59,681 bases of DNA from an uncultured Thermoplasmata archaeon (GCA_964535805.1 CAZHUM010000004.1:1-59681); one strand, 5' to 3'; counted from the stretch's first letter, positions 12,414 through 58,098 are shown. Notes: generated by a model not told the origin, from the letters alone. Translations and numbers: made by a program.

Positions 12414-13511
12414 ATGTCGCCAGAAATCGAGGATGAGATAGAAAAGATCGAAGAGGAGATCAAAACCACTCCCTACAACAAGGCAACCCAGCACCACATA
12501 GGTAAACTGAAAGCTAAACTATCTAAACTAAAAGAGAAGCTGGAACGGAAAGGGAAGGGAACGGCGAGGGGTGGAGGATACGCGGTCCCCAAAGAAGGAG
12601 ACGCCACAGTCGGACTCGTCGGTTACCCCAGCGTGGGAAAGAGCACCCTGCTGAACGAACTCACCAACGCAAAGAGCAAGGTAGCCCCCTATCATTTCAC
12701 CACCCTGGACGTGATACCCGGTGTTCTCCTTTACAACGATGCCGAGATCCAGATCCTCGACCTCCCAGGTCTTGTACAGGGAGCCGCCTCCGGCAAGGGC
12801 AGGGGAAAGGAAGTTCTATCCGTTGCAAGGGAAGTCGATTTGATAGTGATGATAGGAGACGTTACCAGGAGCGATATCTCCGGTATAGCGAGAGAGCTCG
12901 AGGGCATGGGCGTTAGACTCAACAAGGAACCGCCGGATATCAATATCAAAAGGAAAGACCGCGGAGGTCTGGAAGTAGCCAGCACGGTCACGCTCACCGA
13001 GGTAGACAAAGAAACCGTCAAAGACATACTGAGAGAGTACGGGTACATCAACGGCACGATCGTTATACGCTCTGACATCACGGTCGACCAGCTGATAGAC
13101 CATCTAGCCGGCAACAGGGTTTACACCAAAGCCATGTGTGTCATCAACAAGATCGACATGCCCTTCGATGGTAGTAAGGAAGAGATAATCGGATCAAATA
13201 AACCGTGGAAACCGATATTCATATCCGTAGAAGAAGGCACCAATCTAGATGAACTGAAAGAAGCTATGTTCGAGAACCTGAATTTCATAAGGATCTTCCT
13301 TAAGCCCCAGGGAGAGAAGGGCGACGACGAACCCATGATCGTAAAAGAGGGGGCGAGGGTCAAAGACGTGTGTAAAAAACTGCACAGCGATTTCGTCGAT
13401 AAATTCAGATACGCACGTATATGGGGTCCGACGGCTAAGTTCCCCAAACAGAGGGTGGGTAAGGACCACGTACTAAAAGAGGGAGATACATTACGCATAA
13501 TAATCGGTTGA
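12414..13511 (+). CDS. DRG/Obg-family GTPase with a TGS domain
   Basis: YNKATQHHIGKLKAKL N-terminus; G1 GYPSVGKST, G3 DLPG, G4 NKID; C-terminal TGS-like segment. Confidence 0.9.
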   Translation: MSPEIEDEIEKIEEEIKTTPYNKATQHHIGKLKAKLSKLKEKLERKGKGTARGGGYAVPKEGDATVGLVGYPSVGKSTLLNELTNAKSKVAPYHFTTLDVIPGVLLYNDAEIQILDLPGLVQGAASGKGRGKEVLSVAREVDLIVMIGDVTRSDISGIARELEGMGVRLNKEPPDINIKRKDRGGLEVASTVTLTEVDKETVKDILREYGYINGTIVIRSDITVDQLIDHLAGNRVYTKAMCVINKIDMPFDGSKEEIIGSNKPWKPIFISVEEGTNLDELKEAMFENLNFIRIFLKPQGEKGDDEPMIVKEGARVKDVCKKLHSDFVDKFRYARIWGPTAKFPKQRVGKDHVLKEGDTLRIIIG

Positions 13512-15357: not shown

Positions 15358-18300
15358 ATGGGTTTCCTAGATTCCATAGACAAGTTGATAGATAAAGAAA
15401 AAAGAACGCTCGCCAAGGCAGGAAAGTACCTTGACAAGGCAAAGAATTTACATCAGCAGGGTGATATTCAAGGTTCCAAGGAGTACTGTGACCGAATATG
15501 GGACCACCTCAAGAAGCAAGAGTCCAGTTTCGAAAACATGATCGATCAATTATCGGTTAAGTACGACGAACTGGGTTGGATGTATTATCATATCGGTTTC
15601 GAGGACAACGCACTCGCCGCTGAAGAAGAAGCGATCCGTATCAACCCGAAGAACGTTGATGCGCTTAATCACAAAGCTCTCATCAACGCTGAGAGATCCA
15701 GGTACGACGATGCGTTGAATATCCTCGAGAACGCTATAGCTGTCGACCCTCATAACAAGTACACGTTGGGAAACAAGGGTGACGTTCTCAAAGCGATGGG
15801 AAGAAAGGAAGAATCTGTAAAGACCTATGAAAAGGCACTCCAAATCGATCCGACCGACATATCATTTTACAATAAGATACTGGAGATCCAACCCAATGAT
15901 TCCAAAACATGGGCAAACAGAGGTTGGGCCCAGAGGAAGAACGGCGATTACGAAAGTGCTATCGAATCTTTCAATAAGTCTTTGGAGATAAACCCCAATC
16001 AAGAAAAGATATGGCTGTACAAGGGAGTTACGCTTAGGGAAGTTAACAAACCAAACGACGCCGTCGTGTGTTTCGACAACGGTATCGAGATCAACCCTGA
16101 TAGGAAGAGTTTATGGGTGGAGAAGGGAAGGACACTGCATCAATTGGGGAGAAAGGAGGAGGCTCTCGAAGCTTTAACTAGAGCGTTGGAGATAGATTCA
16201 GAGGACAAAGAATTGTGGAATAAAAAAGGTACTCTGTTGTACGAATTAAAAAGATACAGGGACGCTGTAGCTGCCTTCGACAAAGGCTTAGCCATCGACT
16301 ATGAAGACATAAGGTTACTCACAAACAAGAAAGAAGCGTTGAAACCCCTGGGTAAGTACGAAGAACTTATCAGAGTCTCCGATAAAATATTGGAGAGAAA
16401 TCCAACAGATGCAACGACCCTCTACGATAAAGGTGTAGCTCTTCAAAGATTAAAAAGGTACGACGAAGCCATAGAGCAGTTCGAGGAAGCTCTTACATAC
16501 AATCCAAAAGACACCCACGCACTGCGCCACGAAAAGGAGATATACAAGAACCTAAAGAAATGGAAAGAGGTAGTACGTGTAGCAGACAGGATCAACGTTA
16601 TCGATGACGGGATCTACGATGCGTGGTATGACAGAGGGGTAGCTCTTTTAAAATTAAACAACTCCGAACTAGCTCTTGATAGTTTCAACAGATCCTTGGA
16701 GATAAAAGAAGATGATAAGAACAGTCTAGAAGGAAAAAAGGAAGCCCTTAAGGAACTAAGAAGGTACGGCGAAGTTATCACGGTCTGCGATAGACTGATA
16801 TCGATGGACCCAGATAATATCGAGGCTTATTTCGATCGTGCTAGGTCTTACGAGAGAACTAACAACTACGAGAAAGCCATACGAGATTTCGAGAAAGGTC
16901 TCCAGATGGACGACAGCAGGTACGAAAAATGGAATGAAAAGGGTCTCAGCGAGTACCGACTGGGCAAGTACAAAGATGCGCTCAACAGCTTCCAAAAAGC
17001 CATCGGGCTCAACCCGAAAGACAAGAGGTTCTACAACAACATGGGGCACTGCCTCAGCAAGATGGAGAGATACGAGGATGCCATCGATGCTTACTCAAAG
17101 GCTCTAAAATTGGACCCCAGAGATAAGCGGATATGGTACAGCAAGGGTCTCGCACAAGAGGGGTTGAACAGATACGAGGAAGCCGTCGTTTCATACGAAA
17201 AAACACTTGAGATCGACCCACAGGACGACAAAGTTTGGTACAGCAAAGGTATCGCCCTTGAATGGTTGGATAGGTACAAAGACGCCATCGACGCATTCAA
17301 TCATTCCATCAAACTCAACCCGTCACACAGACTCGCTTACATAAGAAAAGGTGTGGCACTCACCAAGATAGATAAACATGAACAAGCTGTCCGAGCATTC
17401 GATAGGGCACTCTCTATGGAGCCTCGCGATGTCAAACTGCTGGAGAAGAAAAAGGAATCGATCAAGGAACTAGCTAGATGGAGTGATTTGATACAAACGT
17501 GTGACAGTATCATAGAGCTCGACACCAACAATGCAGAGGCGTGGAGAGACAAGGGGGATGCACTGAGCCATCTAGGTGAAGCTGAATCCGCTCTTTACTG
17601 CTTCGAGAGCGCACTGGAGATAGAGGAAAACATAGAGGACATGAAGAAGGCGAAAGAGCTCCTTAAGGATCTCAAGAGGTCCGAAGAAGTATTGAAGTAC
17701 AGTGAGAGGATAATCGATATAGAACCAGATAATATAGAAGCTTGGCAGGACAAAGCTATAGCACTGAAGTTCCTCGATGAAAGAGAAAAGAGTCTCGAGG
17801 CATTCGATAAGGCTCTTGACCTGGATCCGAATTCAAAAAAGATGTGGTTCCAAAAAGGTCTAGTCCTGGAACATCTCAACCAGTACGAGAATGCTATGAG
17901 GGCGTATAACGAAGCACTCGACCTGGATCCGAACGATGTGGACGTTATCAACAGGAAGGCAGAATCCCTCCGTAAGATGGAGAGGTACGAGGAAGCCGCA
18001 CAGTGGTACCAGAAAGCCATCGACCATCAGCCTGAAAATACCCAGTTCTTGGATATGAAGGGCAGATGTTTGATAGAGACGGGCGATCTAGAGGAGGCTG
18101 AAGAAGTGTTCGAAAGGTCTCTGGAGATCAACGACCAGAACGGTCTTACCTGGAAGTACAAAGGTCTGCTCTCCGAAAGACTGGAGAAGTACGAGGAAGC
18201 CATCGGAGCCCTCGATACCGCTGTAAAACTAGGTTTTGATGACAAAGGTGTTTGGACGACCAAAGCGGAATGCTACGATTACCTTGGAAGGAAAGACGAT

Positions 18301-19560
18301 GCTATCAGATCTTACAACATGGCTATTGACAAGGATCCACAGGACGCAAAACTGTTCTTCAAAAGAGGAGAGATCGAATCGGAGATCGAACGGTACGAAG
18401 ATGCAGCCGAGAGTTTCTACGAGGCGACGATCATCGACCCAGAGTACGAAGAAGCCTGGTTCGAACGCGGCAGAGCGCTTGAAGCTTTAGAACGTTACAA
18501 CGCGGCAATAGAAGCTTATGATAAAGCCATAGGTCTTGATTCCGATGACAAGTATGCTTGGAACAACAAGGGAAGGGTACTTTTAGAAATGGGAAGAAGT
18601 GATAAGGCGGAAAGAGCTTTCCAGAAAGCCCTAGATATAGACACCGGTTTCGAATCCGCGAATGAAGGTCTAGAGATAGCCGAGGAGAAAGAAAAACAAA
18701 GGAAGCTTGAGAAGTATGCGAAGAGGGTGTTGGAATTCGAATGTGTGAGGAACCGACCGATATCAAAAGAGGAAGCATTCAAGAAGTGCGATATACCGTA
18801 CAATTTCATCGATGAAGTATTCACATACCTTTCCACGAGAGAACCGGTCGATTTCGGTGCTTTGGAAGAGGAAGAACAGAAAAAGTACGAAGCTGCTTCG
18901 CGTGCGGTCATCACTAAGCTTGCCACGCACTCTAGAGACAGCCTTTTGAACAATGGAGTAAGATTATGCGACATAGTAACCAAATATCCAGATAAATCCA
19001 TCGAAGAGTGCAAACACGTTCTAGAGTATATTAAAGAAGTATCGGAGATGGATGTTCCAACTGACCAGATCGATGAGAAGACGGAGAGACTCTTAAGAAA
19101 AAGAGTGTTGGACCTACCTCCGGAGAAGAGGGACTTCCTCAGCCTTGTCTCAAATCTAAATATAGGTATATATCAAGCCAAGAAAGTACAGGAAGCGCTG
19201 AAGAAATTCGAGGGGGCCGATTACAGACCGCCGAGTACTAAGATATCATCTTTGGTCAAAGAGAGTCCTATGAGGGGAGAAACAGTGGTCAAGCCAGAGG
19301 AGAAAGATGAGAAAAAAAAAGAAACCTCTAAAGAACCACCCAAAGAAGTAGAAAAGAAAGAAGAGGAAGAAGAGAAACCGGAAGAAAAGAAGGAAACCAA
19401 GTGTTACTTCTGCGGAGACCCAACCAACTACAAACACGACTGTGGTGACCTGCCCCTCTGTCCACAGTGTGAAGAAAAGCACGCTGGTGAGATATGTCCT
19501 GAATGCGGAGAAGTTATAGGCAGCTCGAAGAAGAAAACTGACGACGATATGCGGTTGTGA
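15358..19560 (+). CDS. Giant TPR-repeat protein (1400 aa) with a K/E-rich linker and C-terminal Cys-rich zinc-ribbon module
   Basis: About 30 consecutive 34-aa TPR units (W/Y..G.AL..L.RYEEA...Y.KALE.DP.). C-terminus is KCYFCGD...CPQCEEKHAGEICPECGE. Confidence 0.9.
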   Translation: MGFLDSIDKLIDKEKRTLAKAGKYLDKAKNLHQQGDIQGSKEYCDRIWDHLKKQESSFENMIDQLSVKYDELGWMYYHIGFEDNALAAEEEAIRINPKNVDALNHKALINAERSRYDDALNILENAIAVDPHNKYTLGNKGDVLKAMGRKEESVKTYEKALQIDPTDISFYNKILEIQPNDSKTWANRGWAQRKNGDYESAIESFNKSLEINPNQEKIWLYKGVTLREVNKPNDAVVCFDNGIEINPDRKSLWVEKGRTLHQLGRKEEALEALTRALEIDSEDKELWNKKGTLLYELKRYRDAVAAFDKGLAIDYEDIRLLTNKKEALKPLGKYEELIRVSDKILERNPTDATTLYDKGVALQRLKRYDEAIEQFEEALTYNPKDTHALRHEKEIYKNLKKWKEVVRVADRINVIDDGIYDAWYDRGVALLKLNNSELALDSFNRSLEIKEDDKNSLEGKKEALKELRRYGEVITVCDRLISMDPDNIEAYFDRARSYERTNNYEKAIRDFEKGLQMDDSRYEKWNEKGLSEYRLGKYKDALNSFQKAIGLNPKDKRFYNNMGHCLSKMERYEDAIDAYSKALKLDPRDKRIWYSKGLAQEGLNRYEEAVVSYEKTLEIDPQDDKVWYSKGIALEWLDRYKDAIDAFNHSIKLNPSHRLAYIRKGVALTKIDKHEQAVRAFDRALSMEPRDVKLLEKKKESIKELARWSDLIQTCDSIIELDTNNAEAWRDKGDALSHLGEAESALYCFESALEIEENIEDMKKAKELLKDLKRSEEVLKYSERIIDIEPDNIEAWQDKAIALKFLDEREKSLEAFDKALDLDPNSKKMWFQKGLVLEHLNQYENAMRAYNEALDLDPNDVDVINRKAESLRKMERYEEAAQWYQKAIDHQPENTQFLDMKGRCLIETGDLEEAEEVFERSLEINDQNGLTWKYKGLLSERLEKYEEAIGALDTAVKLGFDDKGVWTTKAECYDYLGRKDDAIRSYNMAIDKDPQDAKLFFKRGEIESEIERYEDAAESFYEATIIDPEYEEAWFERGRALEALERYNAAIEAYDKAIGLDSDDKYAWNNKGRVLLEMGRSDKAERAFQKALDIDTGFESANEGLEIAEEKEKQRKLEKYAKRVLEFECVRNRPISKEEAFKKCDIPYNFIDEVFTYLSTREPVDFGALEEEEQKKYEAASRAVITKLATHSRDSLLNNGVRLCDIVTKYPDKSIEECKHVLEYIKEVSEMDVPTDQIDEKTERLLRKRVLDLPPEKRDFLSLVSNLNIGIYQAKKVQEALKKFEGADYRPPSTKISSLVKESPMRGETVVKPEEKDEKKKETSKEPPKEVEKKEEEEEKPEEKKETKCYFCGDPTNYKHDCGDLPLCPQCEEKHAGEICPECGEVIGSSKKKTDDDMRL

Positions 19561-21283: not shown

Positions 21284-21563
21284 ATTCTTCTAATTTCATC
21301 GTGATTTCCATCGAAGAAACGTTGGTTGTTCCTTCTCCTCCCTCTCTTTCTAACTGTTCAGTGTCCGTTTTTATGTCGATTATATCCGATGTAGGCACGA
21401 ACCGATTTTTTGTTATCTCAGCGACATCCACTGCCTTGCTTATAGCTCTTCCTCGTGCTTTGATAACAACTTCATCAGATCCGCTGTTGAATTGTGTAAC
21501 AACAGCCATCACGTAGTTCATGGTTTCTTTCTTTCCGATATACACTGTATTTTCATCATCCAT
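21282..21563 (-). CDS. albA: Chromatin/RNA-binding protein Alba
   Basis: [21 protein letters not shown]...[25 protein letters not shown] lies 8 nt upstream of the ATG. Confidence 0.95.
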
Positions 21564-21613
21564 AGTTTTTGCCTCCTGACTAGTTTTATTGGGTTTTGAT
21601 GTAGTAAATATCG

Positions 21614-21626
21614 GTATATAATATTT
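21614..21626 (-). promoter_or_regulatory. TATA-like box upstream of albA
   Basis: Minus strand AAAATATTATATACC, about 55 nt upstream of ATG 21563. Confidence 0.3.
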
Positions 21627-21641
21627 TGGATAACTATTATG

Positions 21642-21649
21642 AAAAAAAA
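21642..21649 (-). terminator. Oligo-T (T8) run, likely the end of the S24e-S27ae-tRNA-Arg transcription unit
   Basis: A8 on the plus strand equals T8 on the minus strand. It is the first long T run after the tRNA and its trailer. Confidence 0.4.
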
Positions 21650-21955
21650 TTTGTTTAATTAATCAGAAATTTGTAAACGGACCAACCAAAATTCCTGACG
21701 GATTTTCCTCGCCTTTTAATCATAGATTAAAAGACTCGCCGGGATTTCGGAAACCTGTTTGCGAGATAAGGCGATGAAGTGAGCAAAGCGAGCTGATTCG
21801 CCGGGATGTTGAAAACTTGCTTTTCAACATTAGGCGAGGGAGCGAGTGGAACGAGCGGACTCGTCAGAAATCACAGATTTCTAACTGCCCGTTTTTCGGA
21901 GAAAAACGGACTCCACAAAATGCTATCACATTTTCCTCGTTCGCCAAAATAAATT
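21650..21955 (-). repeat. Degenerate tandem modules carrying tRNA-Arg 3'-end copies plus A/T-rich hairpins (tRNA trailer)
   Basis: tRNA 3'-end copies at 21733-21750 (18/19 vs 21961-21979) and 21795-21807 (12/13). GGACTCG/C recurs at 21857 and 21908. Hairpins at 21714-21732, 21808-21828, 21866-21882, 21890-21908, 21917-21934 and 21942-21960. Confidence 0.7.
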
Positions 21956-22090
21956 TGGCGGACTCGCCGGGAATTTCGGTCGAATTGTGGCCAACCCGAT
22001 TTTCGAACCCGGGATCGGGGCTCCGGAAGCCCCAGTGATATCCATTGTAGCCCGCCTACAGCTGTAAACGGGTAGCTACACTACGAGCCC
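21956..22090 (-). tRNA. tRNA-Arg (anticodon CCG) with two 29-nt non-canonical introns (22045-22073 in the D-loop, 21973-22001 in the T-loop); CCA encoded
   Basis: Hand-folded cloverleaf after removing both introns: GGGCTCG/CGAGTCC acceptor, anticodon arm GGGGC-TTCCGGA-GCCCC, T arm CCGGG-TTCGAAT-CCCGG. Both introns are bounded by bulge-helix-bulge motifs. Confidence 0.75.
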
Positions 22091-22100
22091 AAAACAGTTA

Positions 22101-22253
22101 TTATTTATTCTTAAATTCCGTGTACCCACATTTACCGCAGGAAACCCTGTCTTTATGTACGGCTAAAAATACGCCCTCACCACATTTAGGACAGTTTCTT
22201 CTCTTCCTTTTTAATTCTCCGTTCTCCACTTCATAGATATCGATTTTACTCAC
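22101..22253 (-). CDS. rps27ae: Ribosomal protein S27ae (eS31), 50 aa; below the ORF-track length cutoff
   Basis: Manual translation gives [50 protein letters not shown] (CPxC...CGxC zinc ribbon). The GTG start overlaps the S24e stop; an alternative GTG lies at 22262. Confidence 0.8.
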
Positions 22254-22554
22254 TTTTTTCACCCCCGGTCAATCCATTTCTCTCCAGTATATGCTTCGAT
22301 TCGTATTCATAGGCATCTTCTTTATTTTCATATAGTTTGACTTCAACTACAGATTCGTCTTTACCATATGTTGATTTGATACTCTGGATGATCACTTTGC
22401 CCTTCGCGAAACCGGTCAGATCTGCCACTCTGTTCCTAACTGTTTTTCTGTCAGGTGTGGAAATACCTTCGTGATATAATCTTACAGTGAGTTCTCTCCG
22501 ATTGAACAATTTGTTTTCCTTTTCATTCTCGATTTCCAATTCCATTTCCGCCAT
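22246..22554 (-). CDS. rps24e: Ribosomal protein S24e (eS24)
   Basis: [33 protein letters not shown]... Confidence 0.95.
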
Positions 22555-56498: not shown

Positions 56499-56525
56499 CT
56501 CAAAATATTTATTAACTAGTTTTAA

Positions 56526-56555
56526 TTTTTATTTTCGCAGGCTCAAAGAAAAAAT
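56526..56555. repeat. Direct repeat copy 1 (30 nt; 27/30 identical to 56891-56920)
   Basis: TTTTTATTTTCGCAGGCTCAAAGAAAAAAT compared with TTTTTCTTTTCGCAAGCTCAAAGAAGAAAT. Confidence 0.8.
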
Positions 56556-56890
56556 TACCCCTTTCAATAATTTCATCCGCTCCGCTACTGAAATAATTGA
56601 ATGCTACCGGACTATCGTCCACCCACTTTTATTTCATCAAAGATAAAATAATGATCGAAGAACAATTCCCACTTTCACTCGTTCAAAGAACTCATGATCT
56701 TCAGGAACACGGTGTGTTCCTTCGATTTTCAATATCTTCCACCCTGTTTCAGATATGTGAAAATCCGCAGGAACTCGCTACACTCGCTCCTCCTACTTTT
56801 TTACTTCCCTCACTGCGCTCGTGAAGAAGTAATCCTTCTTATACTTCGAGCAAAGCTCTCGTACACGGAGGAACAAGTTCCTCCTATCCA

Positions 56891-56920
56891 TTTTTCTTTT
56901 CGCAAGCTCAAAGAAGAAAT
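56891..56920. repeat. Direct repeat copy 2, immediately 3' of tRNA-Leu (minus-strand pyrimidine-rich hairpin, possible terminator)
   Basis: Minus strand reads TTTCTTCTTT-GAGCTTGCG-AAAAGAAAAA, starting 4 nt after the tRNA discriminator. Confidence 0.8.
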
Positions 56921-56923
56921 GAA

Positions 56924-57008
56924 TGCGAGGGAAGGGATTTGAACCCTCGGACACCTACGTGACAGGATCTTAAGTCCTGCGCCTTTGGCCATGCTTGGCT
57001 ACCCTCGC
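56924..57008 (-). tRNA. tRNA-Leu (anticodon UAA), 85 nt, long variable arm, no intron, CCA not encoded
   Basis: Minus strand: GCGAGGG-TA-GCC..GGC-G-CAGGA-CTTAAGA-TCCTG-TCACGTAGGTGTCC-GAGGG-TTCAAAT-CCCTT-CCCTCGC-A. Confidence 0.95.
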
Positions 57009-57046
57009 TTTAGGAGCGAAAGAATTGAGCGGATAAAGGGAGAGTG

Positions 57047-57080
57047 AGGAGGAATTTATAATTCCTGCGCTACCCTCGCA
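57047..57080 (-). pseudogene. tRNA-Leu-like mini-copy (acceptor 5' strand plus anticodon-arm-like hairpin, D-arm deleted) about 40 nt upstream of tRNA-Leu
   Basis: Minus strand reads GCGAGGGTA|GCGCAGGA-ATTATAA-ATTCCT, versus GCGAGGGTA[GCCAAGCATGGCCAAAG]GCGCAGGA-CTTAAGA-TCCTG in the tRNA. Confidence 0.5.
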
Positions 57081-57252
57081 ATTTGGAGTGAGCTTATGCG
57101 AATTTCGAGAGTGTTTTGGGTGCTTTGCTCCCGATTGCCACTCGCTGTGAGAAAATGCCTGGCATTTTATTGCTGCGAATCCGCTCTTTCAATCGAAATC
57201 TGTAAATCCACTATCATATAAAAGTTTGATTGTCCTGGTCAATAAGTATCAT

Positions 57253-58098
57253 TCACTCTATCTCTTCGACCATCTCTATGAAGTGGTTGAATTTCTTATC
57301 AAGTATCTTGAAACCTTCCTTGAGTGTGGCTTCAGCCATCAGTGAGCCATCTGTTTCGTAATTCAAAATGAATTTATCTTCGGAACCAGTAACCTCGATA
57401 GCATCTTTAGAACAGATCTCCTGGCAAGAGTGACATATCTTACATCCCTCGATATCCGTTATCTTGATGGTATCTCCATCCTCTTCGAGGATATCAACGG
57501 GACATATATCGATGCATTCTCCACACATGTCGCATTTATCTTCATCGATATCCCAGATCGGATAGTATTTGTAACCGATTCCACTTGTGGGCTGCCATTT
57601 TGCGTGATCTTTCGCGGTACCCAATTCAGCAGTCGCATAGATCAAAATCGCCTGGTCATCAGCTAGCTTTATTAGCGGGATCAGATCGTCTACAACCCTG
57701 AGATCAGTCTCTCCAACCGGTGCAAGATCACCAGAGTAAACGGTGCATGGTCCTTTCTTGTTGAGGCTGTAAATAACGGTACAATTGGGACAGCCTTCTC
57801 CCCCGCATTCTTCACATTCATCCTTGTAATTGAACAACTCTAAATCTGTTGGTATCGGTATCAAACCCAGTCTGTGGGCGATTATCTCGTCGAAAAGAGG
57901 TGTGGTGCTTTCGAACTCTTTGTCTTCCTCTCCTCCTATCGTTCCAAGATGAAATTCTACATCTTCGATAGCGAGTTTCGGTACCTCAGCTATGAGAACC
58001 CTTCTTAAAGCGTTTACGAGGGTTGGATTAGCATCAGAAAACAGCAGTTTTGCATACCTATCTTTCATCTCTTGGATTTCGATCTTCATCTTTTCCAC
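57253..58098 (-). CDS. rpoD: DNA-directed RNA polymerase subunit D (Rpo3) with a ferredoxin-like 2x[4Fe-4S] motif domain
   Basis: NALRRVLIAEVP, then CDMCGECIDICP and CKICHSCQEICS. Follows rps11. Confidence 0.9.
   Translation of the reverse strand: MEKMKIEIQEMKDRYAKLLFSDANPTLVNALRRVLIAEVPKLAIEDVEFHLGTIGGEEDKEFESTTPLFDEIIAHRLGLIPIPTDLELFNYKDECEECGGEGCPNCTVIYSLNKKGPCTVYSGDLAPVGETDLRVVDDLIPLIKLADDQAILIYATAELGTAKDHAKWQPTSGIGYKYYPIWDIDEDKCDMCGECIDICPVDILEEDGDTIKITDIEGCKICHSCQEICSKDAIEVTGSEDKFILNYETDGSLMAEATLKEGFKILDKKFNHFIEMVEEIE

Follow-up and report, generated by a model that had tools for sequence, protein, structure and literature searches.

The analysed stretch of DNA, hereafter the window, comprises 59,681 nt with a G+C content of 42% and derives from an uncultured Thermoplasmata archaeon. 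On its minus strand, a tRNA-Arg(CCG) gene (21959..22090) lies within a series of protein-coding genes of the same orientation. Those upstream encode, in order, an H+-pyrophosphatase, RpoE', Spt4, a DUF359 protein, rpS24e and rpS27ae, and those downstream encode Alba, a MazG-like protein, Rio1 and a KH protein. Immediately before the tRNA lies the rpS27ae gene (22101..22262, minus strand), whose conserved position anchors the synteny; a promoter for the tRNA may be contained in the A/T-rich 3' end of this gene. A non-coding array (21564..21955, minus strand) fills the approximately 390 nt that separate the tRNA from the Alba gene, and in it hairpin modules are separated by partial copies of the last tRNA exon. 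A few kilobases from the tRNA, the plus strand encodes a 1400-aa ORF (15358-19560), which consists almost entirely of TPR-like repeats and has an acidic, lysine/glutamate-rich tail as well as a C-terminal cysteine-rich (zinc-ribbon-like) motif.

Read on the minus strand from 22090, the tRNA locus has the sequence GGGCTCG TA GTGT AGCT [29 nt] TGGATA TCAC T GGGGC TTCCGGA GCCCC GATC CCGGG TTCGAA [29 nt] T CCCGG CGAGTCC G CCA, exactly as an earlier note on this DNA had quoted it. In-silico splicing and comparison with orthologues define a gene of 132 nt, made up of tRNA positions 1-73 and two introns, with the anticodon CCG at 22026-22024. Exon 1 (22074..22090, 17 nt, minus strand as are all following parts) covers positions 1-17 (GGGCTCGTAGTGTAGCT), that is, the 5' strands of the acceptor and D stems and the start of the D-loop. 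It is followed by a 29-nt intron between positions 17 and 17a (22045..22073). Exon 2 (22002..22044, 43 nt) spans positions 17a-59 and supplies the remainder of the D-arm, the anticodon arm, a 4-nt variable loop, the 5' strand of the T stem and the T-loop sequence UUCGAA. A second 29-nt intron interrupts the T-loop at 59/60 (21973..22001), and exon 3 (21959..21972, 14 nt) completes positions 60-73 (TCCCGGCGAGTCCG) with the 3' strands of the T and acceptor stems and the discriminator G. A split or permuted tRNA gene was ruled out, as the three exons are colinear within the 132 nt.

The interrupted gene escapes standard detection, as had been anticipated: ARAGORN reports no tRNA in the unspliced locus, and Rfam/Infernal searches return no match, either at gathering thresholds or at E<=1 with permissive filters. 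Deletion of 22045-22073 and 21973-22001 leaves 74 nt followed by CCA, and ARAGORN recognizes this spliced 77-nt sequence as tRNA-Arg(ccg) with a standard cloverleaf and a 7-bp acceptor stem that includes G3-U70. As befits a tRNA-Arg isoacceptor, the 7-nt anticodon loop contains the triplet CCG together with U33 and a purine at position 37. Genes of the window make use of the corresponding CGG codon, which accounts for 41 of about 18,000 codons. A CCA triplet (21956..21958) directly follows the discriminator, and to this extent the earlier reading of a CCA-bearing 3' end stands. As a templated 3' end it probably does not hold up: CCA follows G73 only in the window and its near-identical strains, whereas relatives have GTT, GCT and similar bases there. 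Since the triplet is not conserved and falls inside a downstream hairpin (GCCAAATTTATTTTGGC), it is probably coincidental.

The T-loop intron, located between A59 and U60, has an hBHBh' motif whose outer helix is the 5-bp T stem itself (22012-22008 with 21971-21967). In the central helix, UUCG (U54-G57; 22007-22004) pairs with CGAA of the intron (21978-21975), and the flanking bulges are A58 A59|A (22003-22001) and AU|U60 (21974-21972). The inner helix UCGGG/UUCGA (21999-21995 with 21984-21980) is preceded by one mismatched position; of 27 sequences, 22 have no pair here, at the start of the inner helix, which leaves 4 unpaired nt opposite 1. The outer helix, the central helix and the 3' bulge fit a strict hBHBh' definition, and the pair beside the 5' bulge is mostly absent; judged by this predicted fold, the 5' bulge is not strictly canonical and the site as a whole is near-canonical. 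Such a site could in principle be cut by a strict endonuclease. It resembles the canonical euryarchaeal BHB intron at 37/38 in combining a 5-bp stem with four loop nucleotides paired to the 3' end of the intron, and in predicted cut sites that place the intron between loop nucleotides 6 and 7. It differs in its location in the T-arm and in the usual mismatch of the first inner-helix pair. Position 59/60 is a published non-canonical intron position in other archaea.

The D-loop intron, located between U17 and U17a, has a relaxed HBh' motif. Its central helix joins G12-G15 (22079-22076) to CUAC (22050-22047), for which some orthologues have CUGC or CUAU. The 5' bulge C16 U17|A (22075-22073) is framed by this helix and by a covarying inner helix, CCCGU/GCGGG (22072-22068 with 22055-22051). 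At the 3' site AA|U (22046-22044) there is no closing outer helix, and the best available pairs are U11 with the first A or U11 with G18. An assignment as a strict canonical hBHBh' site failed on this point, and the site is classed as HBh' because an outer helix 3' of AA|U is missing. Relaxed endonuclease specificity, for which the earlier note invoked a heterotetrameric or epsilon-type enzyme, is argued for only by the D-loop HBh' site, not by the T-loop site. Introns of this type in the D-loop have been documented, and are spliced, in M. kandleri (PMC5829648). With coordinates re-derived, the bulge-helix-bulge elements described in the earlier note were recovered at both sites: GTAG/CTAC, CTA plus AAT and CCCG/CGGG in the D-loop, with the weak outer helix that the note had also pointed out, and TTCG/CGAA with AAA plus ATT in the T-loop.

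The closest homologues of the window RpoE' (68-95% identity) come from salt-lake and soda-lake metagenome-assembled genomes (MAGs) labelled Thermoplasmata, Ca. Haladaptatiplasma, Ca. Saliniplasma and Ca. Natronoplasma, followed by a tier at 55-62% from Methanomassiliicoccales and other Thermoplasmatota. NCBI taxonomy places Ca. Haladaptatiplasma in the order Ca. Halarchaeoplasmatales of the class Thermoplasmata; the name 'Haloplasmatales' is also found in the literature. By these RpoE' affinities, the host is a halophilic archaeon of the Thermoplasmatota (Ca. Halarchaeoplasmatales) and not a relative of Thermoproteales. Reading the introns as a clue to lineage, as first suggested, would mislead, since the host belongs to a phylum outside the lineages that reviews give for multi-intron tRNAs. 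All compared sequences are metagenome-assembled. Three contigs with a Thermoplasmata-type RpoE' are filed in MAGs labelled Bacteroidales (L019), Aenigmatarchaeota (L036) and Eisenbacteria (L068), which are probably binning or labelling errors in public records; L036 also carries a two-intron tRNA-Arg.

An RpoE' alignment scan with one genome per species yielded 80 loci, in most of which a tRNA-Arg(CCG) gene follows rpS27ae. This syntenic position is occupied by the interrupted gene in about 30 of the related genomes, and the placement of the two inserts is identical among them; the two-intron locus was also found on a soda-lake metagenome contig. Wherever the region is present in the halophilic clade, the D-loop insert is at the same position and measures 28-33 nt. 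The T-loop insert (29-33 nt) is present in all members of the clade except L012 and L014. Across 27 orthologues, the exons are invariant or nearly so, exon 3 being fully invariant, while the inserts are highly variable in sequence. This constancy of the exons holds across genomes whose RpoE' proteins are only 68-82% identical. Syntenic orthologues without introns, which belong to more distant Thermoplasmatota (L046, L048, L052, L056 and others), have the junctions AGCT|TGGATA and TTCGAA|TCCC. Their D-loop AGCT-TGGATA and T-loop TTCGAA-T are thus the very loops that the proposed cut sites had been predicted to restore.

What is conserved in the inserts is their structure rather than their sequence. 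To assess covariation, 27 distinct two-intron sequences were aligned over 118 columns, anchored at the splice junctions, with only the tips of the intron hairpins trimmed. Of the cells that take part in the proposed precursor structure, 96% are paired; sliding the partners by 1-3 columns lowers this to 30-48%. Both sides have changed in 14 pairs, and none of 500 shuffles reached any of the observed measures. All five pairs of the D-intron inner helix covary (98.5% paired), as do all six of the T-intron inner helix, making 11 of 11 for both introns together. The two 4-bp exon-intron helices, GUAG/CUAC and UUCG/CGAA, are 100% paired in the 27 orthologues, and their only changes are from U:A to U:G or from G:C to G:U. 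A compensatory change across the exon-intron boundary is seen further afield: UUCG/CGAA, the combination in most genomes, is replaced by UUCA/UGAA in L043, L065 and L070. RNAalifold, run on a plain MAFFT alignment of full-length precursors, returned the same helices, with compensatory changes in 19 of 46 pairs, and the minimum free energy fold of the window precursor contains both intron hairpins (-61.1 kcal/mol, z = -3.4). A blind scan for T-loop (59/60) introns based on structure only gave 33 matches, all of them in the tRNA-Arg(CCG) gene, compared with 0-2 in shuffled sequence; across all examined sequence, this structure-based scan found no other tRNA with a 59/60 intron. Taken together, in-silico splicing, intron-less orthologues and covariation bear out the initial reading of two non-canonical introns, one of them in the D-loop and the other in the T-loop, with none in the anticodon loop.

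Across Thermoplasmatota, the orthologous tRNA-Arg(CCG) gene has 0, 1, 2 or 3 introns. The combination of D- and T-loop introns is found in the halophilic clade (about 30 loci, plus the metagenome contig L084) and in L041. L012, L014 and L051 have the D-loop intron only. Genes with an intron in the anticodon loop (37/38) fall into three types: those that combine it with both others (L043:7961-8102 and L065:7919-8067, from uncultured Thermoplasmata MAGs), those that combine it with the T-loop intron (L059, L063 and L070), and those that have it alone (L047, L062 and L078). At least 15 loci have no intron. Seven further orthologues with one to three introns, including both three-intron genes, were spliced in silico, and all were identified by ARAGORN as tRNA-Arg(ccg).

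The array downstream of the tRNA consists of hairpin modules and partial copies of exon 3, which in the window lie at 21869-21856 (TTCTGACGAGTCCG), 21806-21793 (TCCCGGCGAATCAG) and 21744-21731 (TCCCGGCGAGTCTT) on the minus strand. Homologous arrays follow the orthologous tRNA in most relatives, with a period of about 51-67 nt, and are built from two types of unit. Type I units comprise an exon-3 copy, YTCGYTT..CTCACTCCCTCGCCT and a hairpin. Type II units comprise GAGTCCG, a stem closed by GTCCG/CGGRC, AGTT, a second hairpin and GACGA. Matches to the window modules, of up to 97% identity, were confined to the stretch immediately downstream of the same tRNA in other genomes, including genomes with a different protein gene next in line. 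Genome-wide MITEs were rejected as an identity for the modules, as BLAST searches against the window and all loci matched only the region downstream of the orthologous tRNA-Arg. A match with 3 mismatches at 12611-12624 falls inside a coding gene. A derivation of the introns from array modules was likewise rejected, with 283 matches in short-word BLAST compared with 204-324 for shuffled introns. A viral attP was sought in IMG/VR with two queries, the commonest (type II) unit and the T-loop and 3' end without the intervening intron, and neither gave a match. Inspection by eye revealed no recombinase among the downstream ORFs of eight loci with a different gene order, which had the look of ordinary genes, and no evident terminal inverted repeats in a few array units. 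A metagenome scan returned two contigs only, both of the same locus type.

Several individual arrays illustrate how these repeats vary. On two JGI soda-lake sediment contigs (L084:4090-4579 and L083:1-300), at least eight tandem units come after the S27ae-tRNA-Arg locus, which has both introns. One of these contigs ends, and the other begins, inside the array, so such arrays probably break short-read assemblies. In the near-identical strain L002 (5250-5700, compared with window 21560-22000), the modules are in a different order. In this strain, C63->A in the first exon-3 copy introduces a mismatch into the T stem, and 63 nt beyond it there is a perfect copy. The permutation suggests either recent recombination between repeats or an assembly artefact. 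Downstream of the intron-less orthologue in a Methanomassiliicoccales MAG (L042:6597-7200), five 88-nt units each contain the acceptor 3' strand, a variable stretch of 20-26 nt, a complementary sequence resembling the 5' acceptor strand and a conserved 45-nt module. As these units are built on the acceptor sequence of their own tRNA, the arrays track the resident gene. MAGs labelled Methanomassiliicoccales or Thermoplasmata (L078, L062 and L046) also contain copies of their own tRNA-Arg(CCG) 3' end downstream, and in every case the core of the repeat agrees with the local tRNA.

Hairpin-rich non-coding DNA (56499-57253, minus strand) also surrounds the other tRNA gene of the window, tRNA-Leu(TAA) at 57008-56924. 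The 3' trailer of this gene (56920-56890) occurs again 365 nt downstream (56555-56525), and a partial copy of its 5' end (GCGAGGGTAGC) is found about 60 nt upstream. A 24-nt stretch of this region and a module from the tRNA-Arg array of L035 share 96% identity.

On the strength of these comparisons, the locus is very probably a functional, protein-spliced tRNA-Arg(CCG) gene with two introns. One could instead regard it as a decaying pseudogene that has acquired two insertions and whose role in CGG decoding has been taken over by another tRNA. In keeping with this, standard finders do not recognize the gene, CGG is rare (4.9% of Arg codons), and the T-stem substitution of L002 affects a near-identical strain. 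Decay would not be expected, however, to leave the exons near-invariant at the observed RpoE' divergence, to keep the inserts at identical positions in about 30 genomes, or to preserve the BHB helices of fast-evolving inserts through compensatory changes. Near-invariant exons and compensated intron helices point to purifying selection on the spliced product, and the locus thus shows no sign of the decay in relatives that would have spoken against the original proposal. We consider a pseudogene very unlikely. About equally improbable is that the inserts are real but have a fate other than removal by EndA, that is, that they are retained as expanded loops, splice themselves, or are sites of RNase fragmentation that yields a split tRNA held together by pairing. 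The endonuclease that the literature leads one to expect for this phylum has a narrow specificity, and the D-loop site has no outer helix, both of which would suit such a fate. Group I and II ribozymes, in contrast, are far larger than 29 nt, and the inserts are far too small to be either. Their conserved feature is the BHB ruler, in which a 4-bp helix sets each cut 2 nt past one of its ends, and the exon-intron covariation from UUCG/CGAA to UUCA/UGAA also speaks for recognition of this element. Retained inserts at 17/17a and 59/60 would, moreover, destroy the elbow contacts between G18/G19 and Psi55/C56, and intron-less orthologues have ordinary loops.

The repeated exon-3 copies raise a further alternative, in which the T-loop 'intron' is a by-product of recombination at att sites or target-site duplications and the functional 3' exon might be a downstream copy. 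All copies begin at position 60, which is the intron boundary, and the permuted modules of L002, with a perfect copy further down, could be seen in the same light. Against this, the CGAA-NN element that pairs with U54-G57 precedes only the first exon-3 copy, and a downstream copy was rejected as the true 3' exon because such copies do not have it. The downstream copies in the window are also degenerate, the number of short matches between introns and array modules lies within the range obtained for shuffled introns, and L009 and L026 keep the same intron without having arrays. This alternative appears the least probable of all, and we regard it as exceedingly unlikely. An odd feature counts against the preferred reading of a functional tRNA-Arg gene. 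The pair G3:U70 (positions 3 and 70, window 22088 with 21962) is the major identity element for alanyl-tRNA synthetase and could mean mischarging or the presence of an anti-determinant. All 27 orthologues from the halophilic clade share it without exception, and in orthologues further removed the pair is G3:C70 or A3:U70.

In archaeal tRNA splicing, EndA cleaves at the intron boundaries and RtcB ligates the exons. From the architecture of the gene, we infer transcription, EndA cleavage, ligation, the order of intron removal and the specificity of the enzyme as follows. A precursor of about 132 nt would be transcribed, in which each intron folds as its own hairpin. The 3' part of each intron would pair with the four exon nucleotides just 5' of its splice site (G12-G15 in the D-arm and U54-G57 in the T-loop), so that a 4-bp helix would set each of the two cuts 2 nt past its ends. 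In this way, the T-loop intron would mimic the canonical 37/38 geometry (hBHBh'), with the T stem acting as the anticodon stem, and in the D-loop intron only the 5' bulge would be properly framed (HBh'). After EndA cleavage at all four sites, an RtcB-type ligase would seal the exons, three in number, into a 74-nt tRNA with the D-loop AGCUUGGAUA and the T-loop UUCGAAU. With four EndA sequences as queries (M. jannaschii, A. fulgidus, ARMAN-2 and S. tokodaii), phmmer searches of six-frame translations found no EndA in the window or in 82 loci (~0.9 Mb), and a motif regex was also empty.

The phenomenon itself is well known; it is the lineage that is unexpected. According to reviews, a euryarchaeal tRNA gene contains no more than one BHB intron, which occupies the canonical position 37/38 and is cut by strict alpha4 or alpha'2 enzymes, with M. 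kandleri and M. thermautotrophicus as exceptions. Multi-intron tRNAs are given for Crenarchaeota, N. equitans, M. kandleri, M. thermautotrophicus, Korarchaeum and ARMAN, and within the literature searched there was no report of such introns in Thermoplasmatota. The 'Cluster II' Euryarchaeota are described as encoding exclusively alpha'2 EndA, and the solved alpha'2 enzyme of T. acidophilum is a narrow-specificity enzyme; for relaxed motifs, an (alpha-beta)2 or epsilon2 enzyme is required, or one equipped with specific loops. The assignment of a narrow alpha'2 enzyme to the phylum sits uneasily with the D-loop HBh' site.

Among known systems, the multi-intron tRNAs of Thermoproteales and other Crenarchaeota (Sugahara 2008; reviewed in PMC4090602 and PMC4033280) are similar in that they carry two or three short BHB-type introns, colinear and at non-canonical positions including 59/60, and are missed by standard finders. 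The present case differs in that it belongs to Thermoplasmatota rather than TACK and concerns one orthologous gene with a 0-3 intron series; no genome-wide spread or transposition of introns was seen in the two window tRNA genes examined. The pre-tRNA-Glu(UUC) of M. kandleri (PMC5829648) is likewise euryarchaeal, combines a relaxed HBh' intron in the D-loop with a second intron, and raises the same question as to how cleavage is achieved when the enzyme has no known specificity loop. Its D-loop intron is at 20b/21 and is accompanied by a canonical 37/38 intron, whereas the introns described here are at 17/17a and in the T-loop. In addition, the M. kandleri EndA is an (alpha-beta)2 enzyme, whereas the phylum of the window host is described as alpha'2. 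ARMAN-1 and -2 (Micrarchaeota), which have an epsilon2 EndA (PMC3239211, PMC3488258), provide another example of non-canonical and multiple tRNA introns outside TACK, although in a different phylum; no epsilon-type enzyme was detected in the window or the 82 loci.

For the arrays, the possibilities include integration scars, tandem repeats, and terminator or decoy hairpins. Family-2 casposons insert at tRNA 3' ends, produce target duplications of 14-15 bp and can stack in tandem (PMC4779613, PMC6614799), and the A. boonei casposase reads TCAAATC as an upstream signal, which we take to be the tRNA T-loop sequence. The arrays share with casposon duplications and with the att scars of tyrosine integrases the direct 14-nt repeats of a tRNA 3' end and the tandem stacking at a single tRNA gene, and the casposon host range includes, with A. 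boonei, the phylum of the window host. They differ in that no casposase, polymerase or integrase gene was recognized nearby, in that their units are only 50-90 nt long, and in their absence from IMG/VR. The habits of casposons at tRNA 3' ends, together with the coincidence that the exon-3 repeats start exactly at the T-loop intron boundary, make a casposase- or integrase-scar origin a lead, though no more than that. These elements can be joined into a single, speculative account, which we consider rather doubtful in its entirety. It holds that Thermoplasmata, as 'Cluster II' euryarchaea to which surveys assign narrow alpha'2 enzymes only, would have independently evolved an EndA that processes HBh' sites, and that tRNA-Arg(CCG) would be a recombination hot spot at which the stacked 14-nt exon-3 copies are footprints of casposase- or integrase-type insertion. 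The T-loop intron, which lies at the 5' edge of the duplicated segment and splits the T-loop motif read as a 'leader' by the A. boonei casposase, would on this account have arisen from such insertions or been kept as a barrier against them.

In summary, a halophilic order of Thermoplasmata and scattered relatives labelled Methanomassiliicoccales have D- and T-loop introns in one orthologous tRNA gene, with up to three introns per gene. In annotation based on ARAGORN or Infernal/Rfam, tRNA-Arg(CCG) would appear to be missing from these MAGs. The series of zero, one, two and three introns in a single syntenic gene offers natural material for studies of intron gain and loss, and the finding predicts a broadening of EndA specificity in Thermoplasmatota that has not been described.
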